DNA from: an uncultured bacterium
GTDB lineage: Bacteria > Patescibacteriota > Minisyncoccia > Phycocordibacterales > Phycocordibacteraceae
Assembly: GCA_963759775.1 (NCBI GenBank)
Contig: CAVXAH010000001.1
Span: forward strand, 336,682-400,681
DNA length: 64,000 bases
Direction of reading: 5' to 3'
Within the stretch, counting starts at the first letter, position 1; each line of letters opens with the position of its first letter. Below are positions 28,283 through 64,000 of the stretch, piece by piece. Made by a program: the position numbers and the translations under genes. The notes beneath the pieces are model-generated. The model saw only the letters and a program-made list of their open reading frames with translations, had not been told where the DNA came from and made no database searches.

Positions 28283-29179
28283 ATGAACGTAGAAGTGGCT
28301 AAGCGACAATTTTTGGAATACATCGAGATAGAGCGCGGCCGCGCGGTGAAGACCGTGGAAAACTACGACCACTACCTCACTCGTTTTTTCGCGCAAACGA
28401 ACATTAAAGATACGAAAGACATCACAGAAGAGGGTATCCGCGAGTTTCGTTTGTGGCTGAACCGCCAAGAAGGAGTTGATGGCTCAATGAAACGCCGCAC
28501 GCAAAACTACTATTTGATTGCGCTCCGGGCATTTCTCAAATTCCTTCGCAAGCGTGAAATAGAATGTATCTCGCCAGAACGTATTGAGCTTGCAAAGGTC
28601 TCGGAGCGCTCGCTTGATCTCATTTCAAGCACGGAGCTTGAGCGTTTGCTGAAAGCAGCAGAAGGTGCGGACGAAAAAACACTTCGCGACAAGGCCATTT
28701 TGGAACTTCTCTTTTCAACAGGTCTTCGTGTCTCGGAGCTCTGCTCGCTTGATTCGGATCTAGACATCACCCGCGACGAATTTTCCGTCCGTGGCAAAGG
28801 AGACAAAGTGCGCGTCGTCTTTCTCTCCCCTGCCGCAAAACAAGCGGTCGCCGCGTATATGAAAGTCCGCAAAGATATGGGTGAAGCACTCTTTGTAAAC
28901 ACTGCAAAAAACCGTGAGCGCGGTGAGCGGCTCACTCCCCGCTCCATCCAGCATTTGATAAAGAGGTACGCCGCTAAAGCAGGTATTACAAAAAAAGTCA
29001 CCCCGCATGTACTCCGCCACTCTTTCGCCACCGACCTCCTTTCAAACGGCGCTGACATCCGCTCGGTCCAACAACTCCTCGGTCACGCCTCTATAAACAC
29101 GACGCAAATCTACACGCACGTGACCGACTCCCACCTCCGCGACATTCATAAGAAATTCCACTCAAAGGGCCGCTCATAA
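28283..29179 (+). CDS. Tyrosine site-specific recombinase, XerC/XerD-like
   Basis: C-terminal catalytic pattern HVLRHSFATDLLSNGADIRSVQQLLGHASINTTQIYTHV; TATACT box 7 nt upstream of ATG. Confidence 0.85.
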   Translation: MNVEVAKRQFLEYIEIERGRAVKTVENYDHYLTRFFAQTNIKDTKDITEEGIREFRLWLNRQEGVDGSMKRRTQNYYLIALRAFLKFLRKREIECISPERIELAKVSERSLDLISSTELERLLKAAEGADEKTLRDKAILELLFSTGLRVSELCSLDSDLDITRDEFSVRGKGDKVRVVFLSPAAKQAVAAYMKVRKDMGEALFVNTAKNRERGERLTPRSIQHLIKRYAAKAGITKKVTPHVLRHSFATDLLSNGADIRSVQQLLGHASINTTQIYTHVTDSHLRDIHKKFHSKGRS

Positions 29180-41029: not shown

Positions 41030-41420
41030 ACTAAAAGGCGTTGTTCGCCTGTAGGTTATTAAATTGTAGCCTGAGGTGTGTTACAGGCAGTGTTTCGAAT
41101 GTTTCTATAGTGTGTCGGGTCATATGGGTTGTGTATGTGTCGTTCTTTGAAAATCGTAGCCTGCTTCGTTACAGGGCCCCGCGATTCCCTCCGTCGTACC
41201 TTTGTACGCCTCTGGAAATCGCTTTCCCCGTGCCTCGCATACTATCGATTTTCAAGGAACTTTTCGCACTTTTCTAAAAATAAATGCCCGCGCACGCGGA
41301 CATCCAATAACCACCAAGATATCAAAAACTGCGTGTTGCGTCAATGAAGCCCTCAGGTTCTTGGCGAGTTATTCATGGAGCGGTTATTCCATAGCCCCTC
41401 GCATACGCTATTATTGGCGC

Positions 41421-46509: not shown

Positions 46510-46980
46510 TTAAAGGCCACCAACTTCGGTGACAAGCGTGGTGAGTGACACGTACCGCGAACTGCCGGTTGATGCTACCCACGCGACGCCGACGACAACC
46601 TTTTTGGTCTTCGTGTTGTAAGTGGAGACGCTGGTACTCGCAGAGGCAGACGGGATAGAGGCAAGCAGTGGATCACTAAAGATGCCGCTCGGAGGGAGCG
46701 CCGCATATCCGAGCGCACGGAGTTCATCAAGTTTGGTATGAGCGACACGAAGGGCGGTGTGTTCAAAGCGAATTTCGGCAGCGTTTTTAAGTAGCGTACC
46801 GACTACGCTAAAGAGAGTAATCGAAACACCCACAATAAAAACAGCGACCAGAGTTTCAATGAGCGTAAACCCTCGGAAGGTTTTTCTCCCTGCGCTCGCC
46901 GCAGACAAACGCATGGGGACATGCGCTTGTCGTTCGGCTCGTTTGGTAGTAAAACCTCGGCGAGAGACCCTCTGAATCAT
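46510..46980 (-). CDS. Type IV pilin-like protein 2 (prepilin), start uncertain
   Basis: Prepilin motif G|FTLIETLVAVFIVG; in-frame starts ATG 46980 (6 nt after a TATACT box) or ATG 46914. Confidence 0.8.
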   Translation of the reverse strand: MIQRVSRRGFTTKRAERQAHVPMRLSAASAGRKTFRGFTLIETLVAVFIVGVSITLFSVVGTLLKNAAEIRFEHTALRVAHTKLDELRALGYAALPPSGIFSDPLLASIPSASASTSVSTYNTKTKKVVVGVAWVASTGSSRYVSLTTLVTEVGGL

Positions 46981-46987
46981 GGATGCA

Positions 46988-47034
46988 GTATACCCCCACA
47001 CGAACTTCTCCAGACAGTTCGTGTGGGGGTATAC
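46988..47034. promoter_or_regulatory. 18-bp perfect palindrome carrying two divergent TATACT boxes (pilin 2 / tpiA)
   Basis: GTATACCCCCACACGAAC-11 nt-GTTCGTGTGGGGGTATAC; each outer end plus one T reads TATACT, 6 nt from ATG 47042 (tpiA) and ATG 46980 (pilin 2). Confidence 0.5.
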
Positions 47035-47041
47035 TTGCGGA

Positions 47042-47785
47042 ATGCTTATGGTCGCCAACTGGAAAGCGTATGTGGGGACGGCCGAAGAGGCACGAAAGCT
47101 TTTTTCAGTCGCAAAGCGTCTTGCATCCAAAACCCGTGTGCGCATAGTGCTTCTCCCACCGGCCCCACTTTTCGGACTCCTCGCGCCAAAAAATAAGTCA
47201 CGAGTTTCTTTTGGCGTACAAGACGTTTCAACAAAAATGAGCGGCGCACATACGGGCGAGGTGACTGCCGAGACGGTCGCCGGCCTGGGGGCGAAGTATG
47301 TGATTGTTGGTCATTCCGAGCGCCGTGCCGCGGGCGAGTCGCTCCCACAGATTACCGAGAAGCTCCGCCGCGTGCTCGTGGAAGACCTCACGCCTGTTTT
47401 GTGTGTCGGTGAAAGCGAGCGCGACTCCGATGGTCGCTATCTCGCATACGTGCGCGAAGAAATTACTTCAGCACTTCTTCCGCTCTCACCGAGAGACCGC
47501 TCCCGCGTCGTCATTGCGTACGAACCTATTTGGGCAATTGGAAAAACCGCCGCTGACGCTCTCTCTGCGTCCGATCTTGCTGAAATGGTTTTGTATATCA
47601 GAAAAGTGCTTGCCGAAATTCTCCCCGGCAAATCAAGTGCACGAACCAAAGTGCTCTACGGCGGTTCGGTTGAGTCCGAAAATGCACGTGCACTTGCGGG
47701 CGGGACGCAAATAGACGGGTTCTTGGTCGGCCATGCGTCTACGGACCCGGTTACTTTTTCAAAACTCGTGCACGCAATCTCGTAA
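47042..47785 (+). CDS. tpiA: Triosephosphate isomerase
   Basis: MLMVANWKAY start, VIVGHSERR, AYEPIWAIGTG-like (AYEPIWAIGKT), YGGSV motifs. Confidence 0.9.
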   Translation: MLMVANWKAYVGTAEEARKLFSVAKRLASKTRVRIVLLPPAPLFGLLAPKNKSRVSFGVQDVSTKMSGAHTGEVTAETVAGLGAKYVIVGHSERRAAGESLPQITEKLRRVLVEDLTPVLCVGESERDSDGRYLAYVREEITSALLPLSPRDRSRVVIAYEPIWAIGKTAADALSASDLAEMVLYIRKVLAEILPGKSSARTKVLYGGSVESENARALAGGTQIDGFLVGHASTDPVTFSKLVHAIS

Positions 47786-47792
47786 CCATGAG

Positions 47793-47909
47793 TCCCGTTA
47801 GAAATCGCGGACGCTATAATGAGCATCACGGTATGCACGATATTTTTATGAGCTCTAATCAAGTAGGGGGCGGCGCTATTGAAGCGTTCGCGTCCTATTT
47901 CTAACGGGA
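47793..47909. mobile_element. MITE-like 117-bp TIR element in the pgk start codon (copy A)
   Basis: TIRs TCCCGTTAGAAAT 47793-47805 / ATTTCTAACGGGA 47897-47909; direct TGAG at 47789-47792 and 47910-47913. Confidence 0.6.
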
Positions 47910-49057
47910 TGAGACCGGTACAGGACATTCCGGTATTCAAAAACATTCCCGTTCTCGTGCGCACGGAAATGAATGTGCCCATTGAAAATGGGGTGGTGGC
48001 TAATGACTATCGCCTGAGGAGAGCTCTGCCAACCATAACGTACCTCGCAGAGCGCGGAGCGCGCGTGATTCTCGTGAGTCATATTGGGGAAAAAGGAACC
48101 GAAACACTTCTCCCGGTTGCGGAGGCACTCAAAACCCTCATAGCTAAAGTTTCTTTTTGTTCCACAACAATAGGTACGGAGGCACGAAGCGCTATACGTG
48201 CGCTCTTACCAGGTGGCGTGCTCGTTCTTGAAAACGTGCGGCGCAATCGCGGGGAAGTGATGAATGATCCGGCATTTGCAAAAGAACTCGCGACACTCGC
48301 AGACGTTTTTGTTGAAGACAGTTTTGACACTTGCCACCGCGCTCACGCATCCATTGTCGGAGTGCCCACACTCCTCCCAAGCTACGCAGGTCTTTTGCTT
48401 CAAGAAGAAATGAAAGAGCTTGGTAAAGCGGGGCATCCAAAAAAACCTGCAATTGCGATTATTGGAGGAGCAAAATTTTCCACAAAAGAACCGGTATTGA
48501 AATCCCTCCTCACTACCTACGACCAGGTATATGTAGGAGGAGCACTCGCGAACGACTTCCTTAAAGCGTCGGGTAACTCTGTAGGAGCATCTCTTGTCTC
48601 TGGCGCTTCACCCGACGAAATTGCTCCGCTTCTAGAGAATAAAAAATTAATCCTTCCCAAGGATGTAGTGGTAATTCCAAAAGAGGCGCAGGGCGCAGAC
48701 GATGTGCGTATGCATTCTCGCGTGAGGGCGGTGAACGCAGTGAAGGATGACGAAATTATTCTTGATATGGGTCCCGACTCCAGCACCCGACTTGCACACG
48801 CGGCACGAGCGGCAAAGACTATTCTCTGGAACGGTCCGCTTGGAAATTACGAACACGGGTTTACTGATGCCACAAACATGCTTGCAAAAGCGATAGCGGA
48901 AAGTGGGGCGCATTCGGTGGTCGGTGGTGGCGACACGGTTGCCGCCATAGAAATGCTCGGCATTCTCCATCGTTTTTCTTTCGTTTCAACCGGCGGTGGC
49001 GCCATGCTTGACCTCATAGCCAAGGGTACGCTCCCAGGTATTGACGTATTGAAGTAA
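47909..49057 (+). CDS. pgk: Phosphoglycerate kinase
   Basis: VLVRTEMNVP, hinge and C-terminal GGGDT / STGGGA motifs; ATG 47909 formed by the last A of the TIR plus TG of the direct repeat. Confidence 0.9.
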   Translation: MRPVQDIPVFKNIPVLVRTEMNVPIENGVVANDYRLRRALPTITYLAERGARVILVSHIGEKGTETLLPVAEALKTLIAKVSFCSTTIGTEARSAIRALLPGGVLVLENVRRNRGEVMNDPAFAKELATLADVFVEDSFDTCHRAHASIVGVPTLLPSYAGLLLQEEMKELGKAGHPKKPAIAIIGGAKFSTKEPVLKSLLTTYDQVYVGGALANDFLKASGNSVGASLVSGASPDEIAPLLENKKLILPKDVVVIPKEAQGADDVRMHSRVRAVNAVKDDEIILDMGPDSSTRLAHAARAAKTILWNGPLGNYEHGFTDATNMLAKAIAESGAHSVVGGGDTVAAIEMLGILHRFSFVSTGGGAMLDLIAKGTLPGIDVLK

Positions 49058-49356: not shown

Positions 49357-49785
49357 TTAAGTAAGCGCGTCGCGAATACTTTTTGCGATTTTTTCTTTTT
49401 CACCTTCAGCGTAGCTTTTCTCGGGCCAAAAGTGGAACTCGTTCCGGTCATGACGGGGAATGATATGGAAATGAAGATGAAAGACAATTTGTCCGGCAGC
49501 TGCCTCATGATTTGAGTTGATATGCACACCGCTCGCACCAACTGCGTCCCGCACGGCGGGTGCGATTTTACGTACGGTGCGCATTACTGCGGCAAGCGTT
49601 GCATCATCAGTATCGAAAATATTTCTCACAGACTTTTTTGGAATCACGAGTGTGTGTCCAGGAACATTGGGACGAATATCAAGAAAGGCAAGTGTCTCGG
49701 CATCCTCGTACACAATGTCAGCTGGGATCTCCCGACGAATGATTTTTGCAAAAGGAGTGTCTTCCACCCCGTTAGAAGTTTTCAT
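49357..49785 (-). CDS. HIT family hydrolase
   Basis: Histidine triad HLHFHIIP; start is either in-element ATG 49785 or GTG 49767 at the element junction. Confidence 0.85.
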   Translation of the reverse strand: MKTSNGVEDTPFAKIIRREIPADIVYEDAETLAFLDIRPNVPGHTLVIPKKSVRNIFDTDDATLAAVMRTVRKIAPAVRDAVGASGVHINSNHEAAAGQIVFHLHFHIIPRHDRNEFHFWPEKSYAEGEKEKIAKSIRDALT

Positions 49786-49868
49786 ACCGTTATTTTTCCG
49801 AAGAAATAAATTTAGAAAAAGAAAGTTCGTTTGAACGAATACTCAAATGGGTTGAACTTCTAACGGGG
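49767..49868. mobile_element. MITE-like 102-bp TIR element in the HIT gene start codon (copy C)
   Basis: TIRs CCCCGTTAGAAGTT 49767-49780 / AACTTCTAACGGGG 49855-49868; direct TCCA at 49763-49766 and 49869-49872. Confidence 0.6.
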
Positions 49869-49897
49869 TCCATGCCGGTCATAGTATCATTCGGGGA

Positions 49898-56992: not shown

Positions 56993-57052
56993 CACTTCAT
57001 TTCGCCCGCCAGAGTATTGGGTTTTATACGCCAAAACACTTGCCCCGGCAGA

Positions 57053-57166
57053 CACTTTGGCATCGTGCCACGTCGTGCATCGAGAATGTTTCAAATCAAA
57101 ATTAATCTGTGTAATTTTATTTTCTTCGTGAACGTGCGGTGGCACGAGCACGACAATGCCAAAGTG
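57053..57166 (+). promoter_or_regulatory. Structured leader upstream of rpsO
   Basis: CACTTTGGCAT (57053-57063) pairs with ATGCCAAAGTG (57156-57166); CGTGCCAC (57064-57071) pairs with GTGGCACG (57139-57146); alternative pairing GTCGTGC/GCACGAC. Confidence 0.35.
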
Positions 57167-57215
57167 TTCGACAGGGCTTGCGTTCAATGTCAAGGTATGG
57201 TACAGTAGCTAGGTA

Positions 57216-57597: not shown

Positions 57598-58113
57598 ATG
57601 GCAGTTATTAAACATTCAGCTCAGCGTGTGGGCGTATTCATTGACACGCAAAATCTCTATCACAGTGCGAAACATCTCTACAAGGCGCGCGTGAACTTCG
57701 CGAAAGTTCTTGAAGAAGCAGTAGGCGGTCGCGTGCTTGTGCGCGCCATCGCGTACGTCATCAAAACAGATAGCGGTGAAGAATCCGCCTTTTTTGATGC
57801 GCTTACTAAGATCGGCATTGAAACCAAAGTCAAAGACTTGCAGGTGTTTGCCGATGGAGCAAAAAAGGCCGACTGGGACGTAGGTCTTGCAATTGATGCG
57901 GTGAAACTTTCACCAAAACTGGACACCGTTATTCTCGCTACGGGCGACGGCGACTACGTACCGCTTATTGAATATCTTGATATGCACACGGGATGTCAGG
58001 TGGAAGTCATTTCCTTTGGAAGGTCTTCTTCGGCAAAATTAAAAGAGGCCGCGCACGCCTTTACCGACATGGGTGAGGACCCTAAAAAGTTCACTATCGG
58101 ACCAAGAGGGTAA
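57598..58113 (+). CDS. NYN/LabA-like domain protein
   Basis: RVGVFIDTQNLYHS...ATGDGDYVPLI pattern of LabA/NYN nucleases. Confidence 0.7.
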   Translation: MAVIKHSAQRVGVFIDTQNLYHSAKHLYKARVNFAKVLEEAVGGRVLVRAIAYVIKTDSGEESAFFDALTKIGIETKVKDLQVFADGAKKADWDVGLAIDAVKLSPKLDTVILATGDGDYVPLIEYLDMHTGCQVEVISFGRSSSAKLKEAAHAFTDMGEDPKKFTIGPRG

Positions 58114-58222
58114 CCCCTTACCACTTTGAGAGTTTGGCCACACCATCTCTCGTATGAACCGCGAGGTTACCTCGCGGTTCATGTTTGTACACCCTTGGGT
58201 ATCTCTCAAAGTGGTAAGGGGT
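58113..58222. repeat. Nested perfect inverted repeats (20-bp outer, 14-bp inner)
   Basis: ACCCCTTACCACTTTGAGAG 58113-58132 / CTCTCAAAGTGGTAAGGGGT 58203-58222; inner palindrome ATGAACCGCGAGGT-T-ACCTCGCGGTTCAT 58154-58182. Confidence 0.85.
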
Positions 58223-58249
58223 GCGCTACTATTGTAAGTACGTCATGAG

Positions 58250-58360
58250 CCCCGTTAGAAATTCAGCGAGCCTCCGTACTTTTCTCACGCTAATGCGCGA
58301 ACTCGCCTCACGGCTCCCTCATACTACCTATATACGTTATGGATAAAATTTCTAACGGGG
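58250..58360. mobile_element. MITE-like 111-bp TIR element in a start codon (copy B)
   Basis: TIRs CCCCGTTAGAAATT 58250-58263 / AATTTCTAACGGGG 58347-58360; direct TGAG at 58246-58249 and 58361-58364. Confidence 0.6.
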
Positions 58361-60039
58361 TGAGCGACCAAAACCAGAGCGAGCCGAACATTGATTCAGG
58401 TGAAATAAAAAAATACATCCGCACGTTTCAAAGCGATGCGGCGGCTCTTCAAAGTGGGACTCATCCGGACCTTGCTCCGCTTGCGCCTTCTCCTGTCACA
58501 CCAGCTCCGCAAACCCCGCCTCCCGCGCGCCCTACTCCAAGATCGCTACCACCAATTCCATATCCGAAGCCATATGATGCTCCTCCATCACCACCACCCC
58601 CGAAAGCTGAACCAAGGAAAATAGCTGAAGTGAGGAGGGTAGTGGACCCCGCCGCCTCTGCAATTGCAGAGATTGAGGCATATGAGAGAGATCTTGAGGC
58701 AGCAGAAAGAGTCGCCCCGCCCCCACCTCATCCAAAAATTTCTGTACCACCTCTCTCGAGAGCATCTCTAGGGGATTCGCGCGAAGTGATTCTTGCGAGA
58801 CTCCGCGCACGAGCAGGCGGAGCGGTCGTACCAGCTGCACCAATCGTAAAATCACCACCTTCGTCTATACCGCCACAACCAAAAGTCATTTCGCCACCCC
58901 CACAAACACTACGTGTAGATAATTCTGAAGAAGCGAAGGCTCTTGCCGAACTTAAGGAACGTCGAGAACATGCTCGCCACCTTGTTGAAGCGCGTCTCAC
59001 TGCCGCAGGGGAAGCTTCGCCACAAATGCCCGGAGCTATCCCTTCCTCACCGAGCCTCCAAAGCCCAAGCGAGCGTCTTATCGGAGGATCTCCTTTTATA
59101 GGAGCACCAGAAACGTCCGCTCCACCTCCACCGTTTATGTTTAAACCACCAGCATCTCCATCGTTGGATACTGCCGCGCCGCTCCATACCTATGAAAGTG
59201 ATTTTTCTGTACGTGTTCAGGAAACGAAAGCTTCAAAAGCAACCATTCTCGCCGCCGAAGGGGACCATGGAGTATCACAGCCGCAAGAAAAAAGTGAAGA
59301 CCCCCGCACACGTCTCCGAAATAGAATCTATATAGCCCTCGGCGCAGTTTTTCTTTTTGGAACCATAGGAAGTGCGTACCTCGTTACTACGTATTATAGA
59401 AATAATCCCGAGACCGTAGCGCCAGCGAAAGTAGTACAAACGCCAATTTTTGTTGACGACCGCGTGCAAGTGAGCGGCACAGGTCGAGAGCTCGCCGCCG
59501 CCCTGTGGCAGGCGGTTACTGCACCTTTGCCGGAAAGTAATGTACGTCTTCTGTACACCGGAAGTGGCACCACTACCAAAACCAACCTCCTGGGGGACTT
59601 AGGTCTTCCGGTGCCTGATGTGGTGCTCCGCAATATATATGCCGAGGGCAGTATGGTAGGAGCGATACATGCAGGTGACGAACAAAGTCCGTTCTTCATT
59701 CTCGCAGTCGCCTCCTATCGCGACACCTTTGCGGGAATGTTTTCTTGGGAGTCGCGCATAACACAAGATCTCGCAGAACTTTTCCCTACATACGAAACGT
59801 CAACCGCTCCGCCGTCCACTAGTGGGACAACGACGCCGGGAGCTCAGCCCACTTTTTTACTCCTTGGTTTTCATGATGAGGTCATTGCAAATCACGACAC
59901 GCGCGTGTACCGCGATGGGAGCGGGCGAAGCATTCTCTTGTATGGATATTGGAATCCGCAAACGCTCATTATTGCTCGAAATGAAGCAGCATTTGCTGAA
60001 ATTATTTCCCGATTCGGCACCTCTCGCACGGCGCAATAA
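58339..60039 (+). CDS. Proline-rich single-pass membrane protein, hypothetical
   Basis: Pro-rich N-half, TM IYIALGAVFLFGTIGSAYLV, globular C-half; start is in-element ATG 58339 or junction GTG 58360. Confidence 0.6.
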   Translation: MDKISNGVSDQNQSEPNIDSGEIKKYIRTFQSDAAALQSGTHPDLAPLAPSPVTPAPQTPPPARPTPRSLPPIPYPKPYDAPPSPPPPKAEPRKIAEVRRVVDPAASAIAEIEAYERDLEAAERVAPPPPHPKISVPPLSRASLGDSREVILARLRARAGGAVVPAAPIVKSPPSSIPPQPKVISPPPQTLRVDNSEEAKALAELKERREHARHLVEARLTAAGEASPQMPGAIPSSPSLQSPSERLIGGSPFIGAPETSAPPPPFMFKPPASPSLDTAAPLHTYESDFSVRVQETKASKATILAAEGDHGVSQPQEKSEDPRTRLRNRIYIALGAVFLFGTIGSAYLVTTYYRNNPETVAPAKVVQTPIFVDDRVQVSGTGRELAAALWQAVTAPLPESNVRLLYTGSGTTTKTNLLGDLGLPVPDVVLRNIYAEGSMVGAIHAGDEQSPFFILAVASYRDTFAGMFSWESRITQDLAELFPTYETSTAPPSTSGTTTPGAQPTFLLLGFHDEVIANHDTRVYRDGSGRSILLYGYWNPQTLIIARNEAAFAEIISRFGTSRTAQ

Positions 60040-63353: not shown

Positions 63354-63665
63354 TCGGGATAGTCCGGAAAGATGCTGATTGGGTTCTATAGGGAAAGGGG
63401 GTAGCGAGGTCGGGCTTCCAGGTACAAAAATGGCTTAGATACGCCATTTCTTTCGGATGTTCGGGTCAGTCGATACTTCTACTCTATCTCATGAAGAGAG
63501 GATGAGCAACCCCATTTTGGCTATCTGGGGACAGTGGTTTTTAGGGTAGAGTACGCAAGTGAAATACCCCGGGGGACAACATGGCATCGCGGCTTTTGTT
63601 TTTTCGTTGTTTCTAGACCAGAATCTAGCGATTTTTACTAGAACGGACGATTATTGCAGTAAATA

Positions 63666-64000
63666 ATGGAGCCGCGCATAAAAAACAATGCCATGTTGTA
63701 CCACAGGGAATACCTCGAAAAGCTCAATGCAGCGCAAAAAGAAGCAGTTCTCGCAACCGACGGCCCGGTTTCAGTTTTGGCGGGTGCGGGATCAGGAAAA
63801 ACGCGGGTTTTGACGACCCGCATCTACCACCTTATTCGGCAGGGTGTCCCGGCGGACAAAATCTTGGCGGTGACGTTCACTAACAAAGCAGCCAGGGAGA
63901 TGCGCGAGCGGGTAAGGGTTATGCTCGGGGAAGAAGACAATGCACATTCCTCCCCACTTCCGTTTGTCTCAACTTTTCATGGGCTTGGTCGTGAACTCTT
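63666..64000 (+). CDS. UvrD/PcrA/Rep family helicase, 5' partial (runs off window)
   Basis: LNAAQKEAV...[17 protein letters not shown]...[16 protein letters not shown] read from sequence; not in ORF track because no stop occurs in the window. Confidence 0.85.

Follow-up and report, generated by a model that had tools for sequence, protein, structure and literature searches.

We analysed a 64,000-nt stretch of contig CAVXAH010000001.1 from an uncultured member of the Patescibacteriota (the window) and found that the initiation codon of its pgk gene is split between A and TG by a 117-bp hairpin-forming element (copy A, window 47793–47909). Comparison with orthologous junctions, which are empty in several relatives, shows that copy A is a real insertion. 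The target was the TGAG that follows the first base of the pgk initiation codon; these 4 bp were duplicated and the reading frame stayed intact. An in-frame start was rebuilt because the last base of the element is a purine and TG follows it, so that T:A-tipped elements give ATG and C:G-tipped elements give GTG. We consider it likely that copy A is a short non-coding hairpin mobile element, mobilised in trans, that regenerates the codon it enters and carries a relay of short open reading frames (ORFs) by which pgk remains translated. A trans-acting enzyme would move such an element in a sequence- and orientation-specific manner, copies would persist at gene-boundary codons because the duplication regenerates the codon, and the ORF relay would keep the interrupted gene translated.

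Copy A lies on the forward strand between tpiA and pgk, and the TIM and PGK Pfam families match the syntenic genes of relatives. The tpiA ORF (46979–47785) ends in TAA at 47783–47785, 2 nt before the old pgk ATG. The 13-nt termini of the element, TCCCGTTAGAAAT (47793–47805; tip T plus a 12-nt core) and ATTTCTAACGGGA (47897–47909), are 100% complementary and enclose a 91-nt interior (47806–47896). They are flanked by TGAG at 47789–47792 and 47910–47913, a geometry confirmed by filled and empty pairs at pgk in relatives; the right-hand copy supplies the TG of the start codon and the AG of codon 2. The old ATG at 47788 now opens a 38-codon mini-ORF (47788–47904) that runs through the left terminus and the interior to a TAA (47902–47904) in the right terminus. 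The final A of this terminus is base 1 of the rebuilt ATG, from which the pgk coding sequence extends over 47909–49057 (382 aa plus stop). These termini, repeats, mini-ORF and rebuilt ATG had been proposed at the same positions by an earlier, sequence-only reading of the window, and all of them were correct. Removal of the element and one repeat restores the junction TAAccATGAGACCG. In an alignment of 18 type 1 copies, the interior of copy A falls in type 1: CGCGGACGC pairs with GCGTCCGCG and lengthens the stem, a TCCT bulge adjoins the right terminus, and the motif TAGGGGGCGG is present. The RNA fold of copy A has an energy of −51.4 kcal/mol (z = −3.3 relative to shuffles).

The closest Pgk homologues are mostly 382–387 aa long and begin with MR[ST]V, which agrees with a start at ATG 47909. 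The public call for the source genome, P0001, begins at an internal methionine and has 362 aa instead of 382. Four Pgk homologues are annotated with a false N terminus ending in SISNGM (SISNEM in one), which is the translated right terminus. Public calls near elements have wrong N termini in P0001, P0008, P0015, P0034 and P0076, and relatives receive 13–16 extra residues.

The gene order tpiA–pgk–HIT(−)–recJ is retained in relatives, and the tpiA–pgk junction occurs there in both states. It is empty at L123, L126/L127, L128, L129 and the contig encoding P0003, where the gap between the genes is 2 nt, as had been predicted for the uninterrupted junction; the insert is not present in all relatives. 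It is occupied by a related element at L121, L122, L124, L125 and L130, with the duplication TGCG and not TGAG. Between L124 (filled) and L128 (empty), whose Pgk proteins are 90% identical, the sole difference is the element plus one TGCG, within identical flanks (...GTCTGACA ATGCG [T-element-A TGCG] AACTATTCG...). This pair thus displays the 4-bp duplication directly and assigns the tip bases to the element. The closest relative of L124, with 95% Pgk identity, is also empty at pgk, so either the L124 insertion is recent or excision is precise. No empty allele of the window's own pgk site was found in the JGI metagenomes. Overall, the pgk start is occupied in the lineage of the window, in the clade of L121/L122/L124/L125–L130 and in the distant L088, with differing duplications (TGAG and TGCG). 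A related element with variant termini, CTCCGTGAGATA ... TATCTCATGGGG (roughly YCCCRTGAGATA), was also seen in the HIT–recJ spacer of L121 (3978–4077), with GTATAC on both sides. It is inserted in an apparent −10 box (TATACT-N6-ATG) of the HIT gene, at a site that is empty in L122 and L123. The superfamily is therefore broader than our exact search pattern.

The sequence-only reading had described two further copies in the window with the same core and start-codon geometry, and we confirmed both. Copy B (49767–49868, reverse strand, C:G tips) is in the start codon of a HIT-family gene, between TCCA repeats (forward strand) at 49763–49766 and 49869–49872. Its old ATG is at 49873–49871 and its rebuilt GTG at 49767–49765; the mini-ORF (49873–49790) has 27 codons and ends in TAA, followed by CGGT (4 nt) and then an ATG in the HIT frame at 49785–49783. 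The restored junction is ATGGAAGAC, with which all HIT orthologues start; the window reads GTGGAAGAC after the element. Copy C (58250–58360, forward strand, C:G tips) is in the start codon of a gene for a 559-aa proline-rich protein, between TGAG repeats at 58246–58249 and 58361–58364. Its old ATG is at 58245 and its rebuilt GTG at 58360, a gene-frame ATG at 58339 overlaps the mini-ORF stop TAA (58344–58346), and the restored junction is ATGAGCGAC. Read in gene sense, all three copies follow one formula, ATG-nn-Y / CCCGTTAGAART ... AYTTCTAACGGG / R-TG-nn, with terminal inverted repeats (TIRs) of 13–15 nt that are 100% complementary. Allowing 0–1 mismatch, the 64-kb window contains six matches to the core, which form exactly these three inverted pairs. 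The three interiors are mutually unrelated by alignment and BLAST, in agreement with what had been judged by eye, and each of the three has a fold more stable than that of its shuffles (z = −3.3 to −3.9).

Scanning metagenome-assembled genome (MAG) contigs, with one genome per species, for perfect 12-nt cores 66–96 nt apart revealed that the family is widespread. All sequences come from metagenome assemblies, and gene starts were taken from ORFs. We recovered at least 120 loci in MAGs and at least 120 further metagenome contigs for one subfamily, which we call deltaproteobacterial; what had been described as a three-member family thus has its three members in the window and hundreds of copies across several phyla. 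Most of the matches listed belong to Patescibacteria, for which candidate phyla radiation (CPR) is another name, including Saccharibacteria, Paceibacterota, Kaiserbacteria, Nomurabacteria and many others. The other matches listed are from Deltaproteobacteria (one on a 1.2-Mb contig), Planctomycetes and Nitrospirae; the viral contigs searched contained no copy. The family termini are YCCCGTTAGAART / AYTTCTAACGGGR. Further copies also carry flanking repeats, the 4-nt repeat being identical in 84 of 129, and the tip pair is complementary in 125 of 129 (T:A in 64, C:G in 60). From these counts, over 129–130 copies, the unit is a 13-nt terminus plus a 4-bp duplication. A model with a 6-bp duplication, or a tyrosine-recombinase core, was less consistent with the data, as mismatches occur only at the outer flank positions and the tip bases remain complementary.

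Element sizes range from 38 to 223 bp; the 64-kb window contains three copies, and a single 8-kb locus elsewhere can contain as many as three. By BLAST, most interiors are unrelated, and subfamilies have subterminal modules of 10–25 nt in common. In a comparison by hand, most changes between the mini-ORF peptides of L121 and L122 were non-synonymous. A single start codon carries tandem or nested double insertions at L013 7674–7895, L043 434–642 and L050 894–1053, and at L013 exactly one hexamer, ATTCAT, lies between the two copies. On a Nitrospirae contig (L063 6500–7100), full-length and mini-hairpin copies (CCCCGTTAGAAGCGCAGCCTCTAACGGGG) are clustered within a longer direct repeat. Searches against Rfam 15 at gathering and permissive thresholds matched no family, only tRNAs being detected in the window; the best score over the element was D12-methyl, at 16 bits against a threshold of 57.

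The copies are concentrated at gene starts. An ATG or GTG opening at least 60 codons directly follows 74 of 130 copies (57%), compared with 1.9% of random positions; 51 of these 74 retain an ATG 6 nt before the left core and 23 have lost the upstream ATG. Copies with T:A tips are at gene starts in 56 of 64 cases (88%), with few at other sites. Those with C:G tips are at gene starts in 17 of 60, converting ATG to GTG, and the rest lie mostly at G/TNNA/C sites (GTAAAC, GTTGAC and GTATAC). The element loci contain 345 start-like, 889 intergenic and 5760 intragenic ATGRR sites, so that the ATGRR motif, combined with loss of all intragenic insertions, predicts ~28% at starts, as against the 88% observed for T:A-tipped copies. 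A −10-like TANNNT lies 6–8 nt upstream of 27 of 51 targeted starts but of only 11–12% of control ORF starts, and such targeted starts look leaderless. A stop–start junction like that of tpiA–pgk is present at 21 of 54 targeted starts. The idea that C:G-tipped CPR copies target stop codons found only 3–4 cases in its favour; it is partly true of the deltaproteobacterial subfamily. Some copies adjoin tRNA genes exactly (L087 5090–5189, L014 1916–2019, L074 3098–3196 and L041 3443–3535), three of them at the 5' end of the gene and the fourth at the 3' end of a tRNA-Val gene. The last 2–4 nt of the right terminus (GG or CGGG) are the first bases of a tRNA-Pro and two tRNA-Leu genes, and in the two tRNA-Leu cases the left flank lengthens the palindrome and mimics the 3' acceptor strand. 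The readings that GTTGAC targets are −35 boxes, and that tRNA acceptor stems are linked to the element, are both anecdotal.

With orientation defined solely from the internal asymmetry of the element, insertion proved directional. The gene is on the same side in 18 of 19 type 1 copies, and in the deltaproteobacterial subfamily the right flank is GTAAA in 12 of 13 copies, in one orientation. Among 121 metagenome matches to this subfamily, the left hexamer is GTAAAC in 52 of 71, and 62 of 71 have identical repeats on the two sides. Its 97 complete copies (L131–L250) form a size series of 38-bp single hairpins (32 copies), 93-bp elements (37 copies) and elements of 125–223 bp, all between GTAAAC and GTAAAN. 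In 17 of the 97, a long upstream ORF terminates at the TAA of the left repeat; 3% of random positions have a stop within 12 nt. Gene starts are not enriched (24 of 97, compared with 27% at random). The preferred duplication is TGAA or TGAG in type 1a, TGCG in type 1b, often TGGA in the hairpin-module type and TAAA in the deltaproteobacterial type. The target thus differs by subfamily, being ATG-RR in the CPR types and G-TAAA, often a TAA stop codon, in the deltaproteobacterial type. Judged from these patterns, orientation and targets would fit single-strand transposition of the HUH type, carry-over of an overhang of the piggyBac kind, or recombination that depends on the shared core.

We searched for the mobilising enzyme at several levels. 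The suggestion that a transposase gene might be bounded by the same TIRs found no match in ~250 loci; in these loci, no pair of termini 0.3–6 kb apart enclosed a transposase-sized ORF. No recurrent neighbouring transposase or integrase gene was present among 660 ORFs from element loci. A Pfam scan of ten small or suspect window ORFs revealed no transposase, only an XerC/D-type recombinase, TsaE, RuvC, NYN and similar domains. The XerC/D-type tyrosine recombinase (window 28283–29179; Phage_integrase plus a SAM-like N-terminal domain) is the only recombinase among these ten ORFs, and we saw no link between it and the element.

How the interrupted genes may still be expressed is suggested by their reading frames. 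In experiments with E. coli and Haloferax, termination–restart coupling is nearly lost at a stop–start distance of ~20 nt (PMC10666635). As pgk originally began 2 nt from the tpiA stop, a 121-nt insert in this junction would need an ORF relay. A short-ORF relay (a stop, at most 4 nt and a restart) is present in all three window copies. At copy A, translation would pass from the tpiA stop over 2 nt to ATG 47788, through 38 codons to TAA 47902 and over 4 nt to ATG 47909. At copy B it would run from the old ATG 49873(−) through 27 codons and TAA, then over 4 nt to ATG 49785(−) in the HIT frame, and at copy C it could use the gene-frame ATG 58339 that overlaps the mini-ORF stop. Scoring a restart within −4 to +10 nt of a stop as a relay, we found an unbroken stop–restart chain into the gene frame in 28 of 54 copies, compared with 19.2 ± 3.3 with shuffled interiors (P = 0.006); by class, the chain was present in 13 of 21 coupled and 11 of 22 leaderless-like copies. 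An in-frame ATG just upstream of the right terminus occurs in 10 of 17 GTG-type copies and 8 of 56 ATG-type copies (Fisher p = 0.0006). Among elements at the pgk site, read by hand, L121 and L122 have TAA-N3-ATG in common, and L125 and L130 have two successive ATGA overlaps in common. Termination–restart at pgk, as first proposed, would fit all three window copies as well as the family-level statistics, and expression probably survives by the short-ORF relay.

Other routes of expression were considered. N-terminal extension by in-frame read-through was rejected: upstream of the rebuilt start, the gene frame is closed more often than it is in shuffles. Modulo 3, the two start codons are separated by 1 in 23 copies, by 2 in 17 and by 0 in 11, and only one of the in-frame copies is open. 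No sigma-70 promoter or terminator was detected when the three window copies were scanned, and −10 boxes inside the element facing the gene did not differ between sense and antisense.

Several pairs of loci allowed us to compare the element with its surroundings. At L121/L122 the termini are identical (24/24) and the interior is 81% identical (73/90), whereas 4-fold sites of the flanking genes are 35–44% identical; conservation of the element there equals that of the adjacent coding DNA. At L039/L085 the interior is 94% identical (79/84), compared with 35% and 58% at flanking-gene 4-fold sites; these two copies have unrelated left (upstream) flanks and have lost the duplication, which speaks for constraint. 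At L125/L130 the shared portion is 85% identical (85/100), compared with 51% at flanking-gene 4-fold sites. Retention of the relay is a plausible cause of host-level constraint, and recent spread of related copies into the same site also fits. There are signs of turnover, in that the closest relatives are empty and the right termini of L125 and L130 are decaying. A wide homologous-recombination tract around the L121/L122 element was looked for and not seen. Sense and antisense folding energies did not differ (n = 73, p = 0.22), so there is no RNA-specific structure signal.

Some of these observations weigh against our reading of a trans-mobilised element that is kept harmless by its relay. The conservation of shared copies points to host-level constraint or very recent spread, not to passive junk. 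Fixed orientation together with an inherited target is, to our knowledge, unusual for a MITE (miniature inverted-repeat transposable element) with symmetric TIRs that is moved by a DDE transposase, and neither a transposase nor a longer element with the same termini was found in the ~250 loci or the window ORFs scanned. The relay is present in only about half of the copies, and other expression routes must therefore exist. In addition, a mini-ORF that reaches the TAA of the right terminus failed as a general model, occurring in 14 of 51 copies and in 12 of the controls with reverse-complemented interiors.

One alternative is that the elements, or many of them, are exapted cis-acting RNA or DNA hairpins at gene 5' ends (a translational operator, a stabiliser or a protein-binding site), which the host maintains and for which mobility is only the origin. 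Conservation far above synonymous sites in the three pairs of shared copies, at L121/L122 equal to that of coding DNA, favours this, as do the stable folds of the window copies and a bias relative to the gene, in which an internal CGGG 'decoy' able to pair with the 5' terminus (22 versus 2) and a CCT adjoining the gene-proximal terminus (21 versus 4) prevail on one side. Subterminal stems also show compensatory changes (CGCGGAC/GTCCGCG versus CACGAAC/GTTCGTG). However, such covariation of the ends is expected of any element whose two ends bind the same protein, and the bias extends to the non-genic deltaproteobacterial subfamily, so it can be mechanistic. The equal folding energies of sense and antisense, the lack of any Rfam match, the decay of the right terminus in L125 and L130 and the unrelated interiors within one genome also argue against it, and the closest relatives of filled genomes, with Pgk identities of 95%, 90% and 87%, are empty. 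We consider exaptation of this kind unlikely. A bolder reading, also less likely than not, is that this family, widespread in Patescibacteria, truly homes to initiation codons (to TAA stops in one subfamily). Its orientation-specific mechanism would draw the target specificity from the element itself, be it by a single-strand guide, by a carried-over overhang or otherwise; the regenerated start codon and the stop–restart relay would make it translationally transparent, and some copies may later have been recruited as 5' regulators.

The opposite possibility is that there is no homing to start codons: the enzyme would prefer a short sequence (A/TGRR or G/TAAA), and in compact genomes only insertions that regenerate a boundary codon would survive. 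The variation of duplications by subfamily, the 86% coding density of the loci and the deltaproteobacterial subfamily, which is strict for GTAAA yet found at TAA stops in only 17–23% and not enriched at gene starts, all agree with this. It leaves unexplained the excess of T:A-tipped copies at starts over the ~28% predicted from ATGRR counts, the repeated insertions at one start codon, the occupation of the pgk start in lineages with differing duplications (TGAG versus TGCG) and the −10-like TANNNT at 27 of 51 targeted starts, and we rate it as somewhat unlikely. Neutralisation of the insert at the level of RNA or the ribosome, by intron-like excision or by a hop from the first AUG to the duplicated AUG or GUG as in T4 gene 60, is suggested by start codons duplicated at the feet of a stable hairpin; initiator tRNA reads both AUG and GUG. 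Yet no ribozyme or intron family in Rfam matches, GTG-type copies have gained in-frame ATGs of the conventional sort within the element, ordinary stop–restart relays are over-represented in the family, the upstream ATG is gone from 23 of 74 start-associated copies, and empty DNA alleles place the origin of the duplication at the DNA level, which together make this explanation highly improbable. The view that the inverted repeat arose by chance, or is an artefact of assembly or adapters, has nothing in its favour beyond the metagenomic origin of all sources, and it is refuted by the different interiors of the three window copies, by hundreds of copies from independent assemblies and sequencing projects, and by site-specific duplications and empty alleles.

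We next compared the element with known systems; literature searches by terminus sequence and by topic returned no description of it or its termini, in line with the earlier statement that no described MITE family targeting start codons was known. The elements have the TIRs of MITEs, a target-site duplication documented by filled and empty alleles, and a small, non-coding unit in several copies per genome. On this basis we classify the anatomy as that of a MITE, without a parent insertion sequence (IS) in the loci scanned, whose target is habitually an initiation codon that is regenerated (a TAA stop in one subfamily). The earlier comparison with MITEs stands for TIRs, duplication and size. 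Movement by a DDE transposase, as for a classical MITE, is not established, given that insertion has a fixed orientation and a target that differs between subfamilies. The Correia elements of Neisseria (NEMIS) are ~100–150 bp long and non-coding, with TIRs, a short duplication and many copies near gene 5' ends; they are co-transcribed as a hairpin, encode no transposase, duplicate TA and are found in promoter or untranslated-region DNA. The present elements resemble them in size class, TIRs, duplication, location at gene 5' ends and hairpin, but lie inside initiation codons, rebuild the codon, have a fixed orientation and use a target tetranucleotide that depends on the subfamily. Rickettsia palindromic elements are inserted in frame inside ORFs and translated within the protein. 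They are likewise palindromic mobile repeats that survive since insertion is compatible with host gene expression, whereas in-frame read-through length occurs in only 11 of 51 of our copies, with 1 open, and the upstream frame is closed more than in shuffles.

REP/REPIN-RAYT systems and IS200/IS605 with their PATEs use HUH single-strand transposition and have neither long-range TIRs nor a flanking direct repeat. Points in common are hairpin-centred activity, fixed orientation, an adjoining specific tetra- or pentanucleotide and a target possibly encoded by element DNA. The oriented insertion at an element-specific tetra- or pentanucleotide seen here is typical of IS200/IS605, and the right-hand repeat could, on this analogy, be the element's own cleavage site. 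In place of the separate subterminal hairpins of IS200/IS605, without TIRs or direct repeats, our elements have perfect long-range termini and flanking repeats. They also differ from REP/REPIN-RAYT in their 4-bp flanking repeats, in having no GTAG-type motif and in the lack of a Y1_Tnp match in the ten window ORFs scanned; only the 38-nt single-hairpin mini forms of the deltaproteobacterial subfamily are REP-like. For piggyBac and bacterial IS1380, a 4-bp duplication is characteristic, the piggyBac target being TTAA. These elements would share with ours the 4-bp duplication and CCC...GGG termini (piggyBac CCCTAGAAAG, present family CCCGTTAGAAAT); footprint-free empty sites may fit precise excision, and overhang carry-over could explain inherited targets and orientation. 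Unlike piggyBac, the present family has the duplications TGAA, TGGA, TGAG, TGCG, TAAA and TTGA, with no TTAA recorded, and an extra variable tip base pair; no transposase of the piggyBac/IS1380 type was found in the loci and window ORFs scanned. The bypass elements of T4 gene 60 and Magnusiomyces mitochondria ('byp') lie inside ORFs and act through peptidyl-tRNA re-pairing. They too are short hairpin inserts between matched codons in genes that are still expressed, but the evidence here favours ordinary termination–restart and new internal ATGs. Integron attC sites (RYYYAAC ... GTTRRRY) stand at the 3' ends of cassettes arrayed by intI, whereas our core has the reverse order, GTTAGAA ... TTCTAAC, on both strands, and copies are scattered at gene starts without arrays.

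The window contains other palindromic sequences. A different element (58113–58222) directly follows the TAA of an NYN-domain gene, 22 nt upstream of copy C. It has perfect 20-nt inverted termini (ACCCCTTACCACTTTGAGAG / CTCTCAAAGTGGTAAGGGGT) with 70 nt between them, and encloses a 14-bp GC-rich hairpin (58154–58182) with GTTTGT after it; the tip of the element, CCCCTTA, is similar to CCCGTTA. A perfect 20-bp hairpin, AGTATACCCCCACACGAACT-N9-AGTTCGTGTGGGGGTATACT (46987–47035), immediately precedes the likely start of tpiA. ORF translations hint at similar sequence nearby (VYPHTN...FVWGYT in two ORFs), so the hairpin may be one more repeated palindromic element. Imperfect long-range inverted repeats at 63564–63711, 41142–41260 and 57035–57184, with arms of 15–32 nt that are 75–93% complementary and 86–100 nt apart, could be other or decayed hairpin elements.

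If our reading is true, this is the first mobile-element family we have found documented with the initiation codon as its usual landing site and with restoration of that codon, and initiation codons would offer selfish DNA a new type of refuge where genomes have almost no intergenic space. The fixed orientation and the subfamily-specific targets point to an uncharacterised, maybe programmable, insertion mechanism. The elements explain systematic mis-annotation of N termini in CPR genomes, and their perfectly conserved 12-nt termini are a marker for horizontal exchange among Patescibacteria, and with Deltaproteobacteria and Planctomycetes. They also provide natural test cases of leaderless and coupled genes that tolerate a 100-nt hairpin at the start site.

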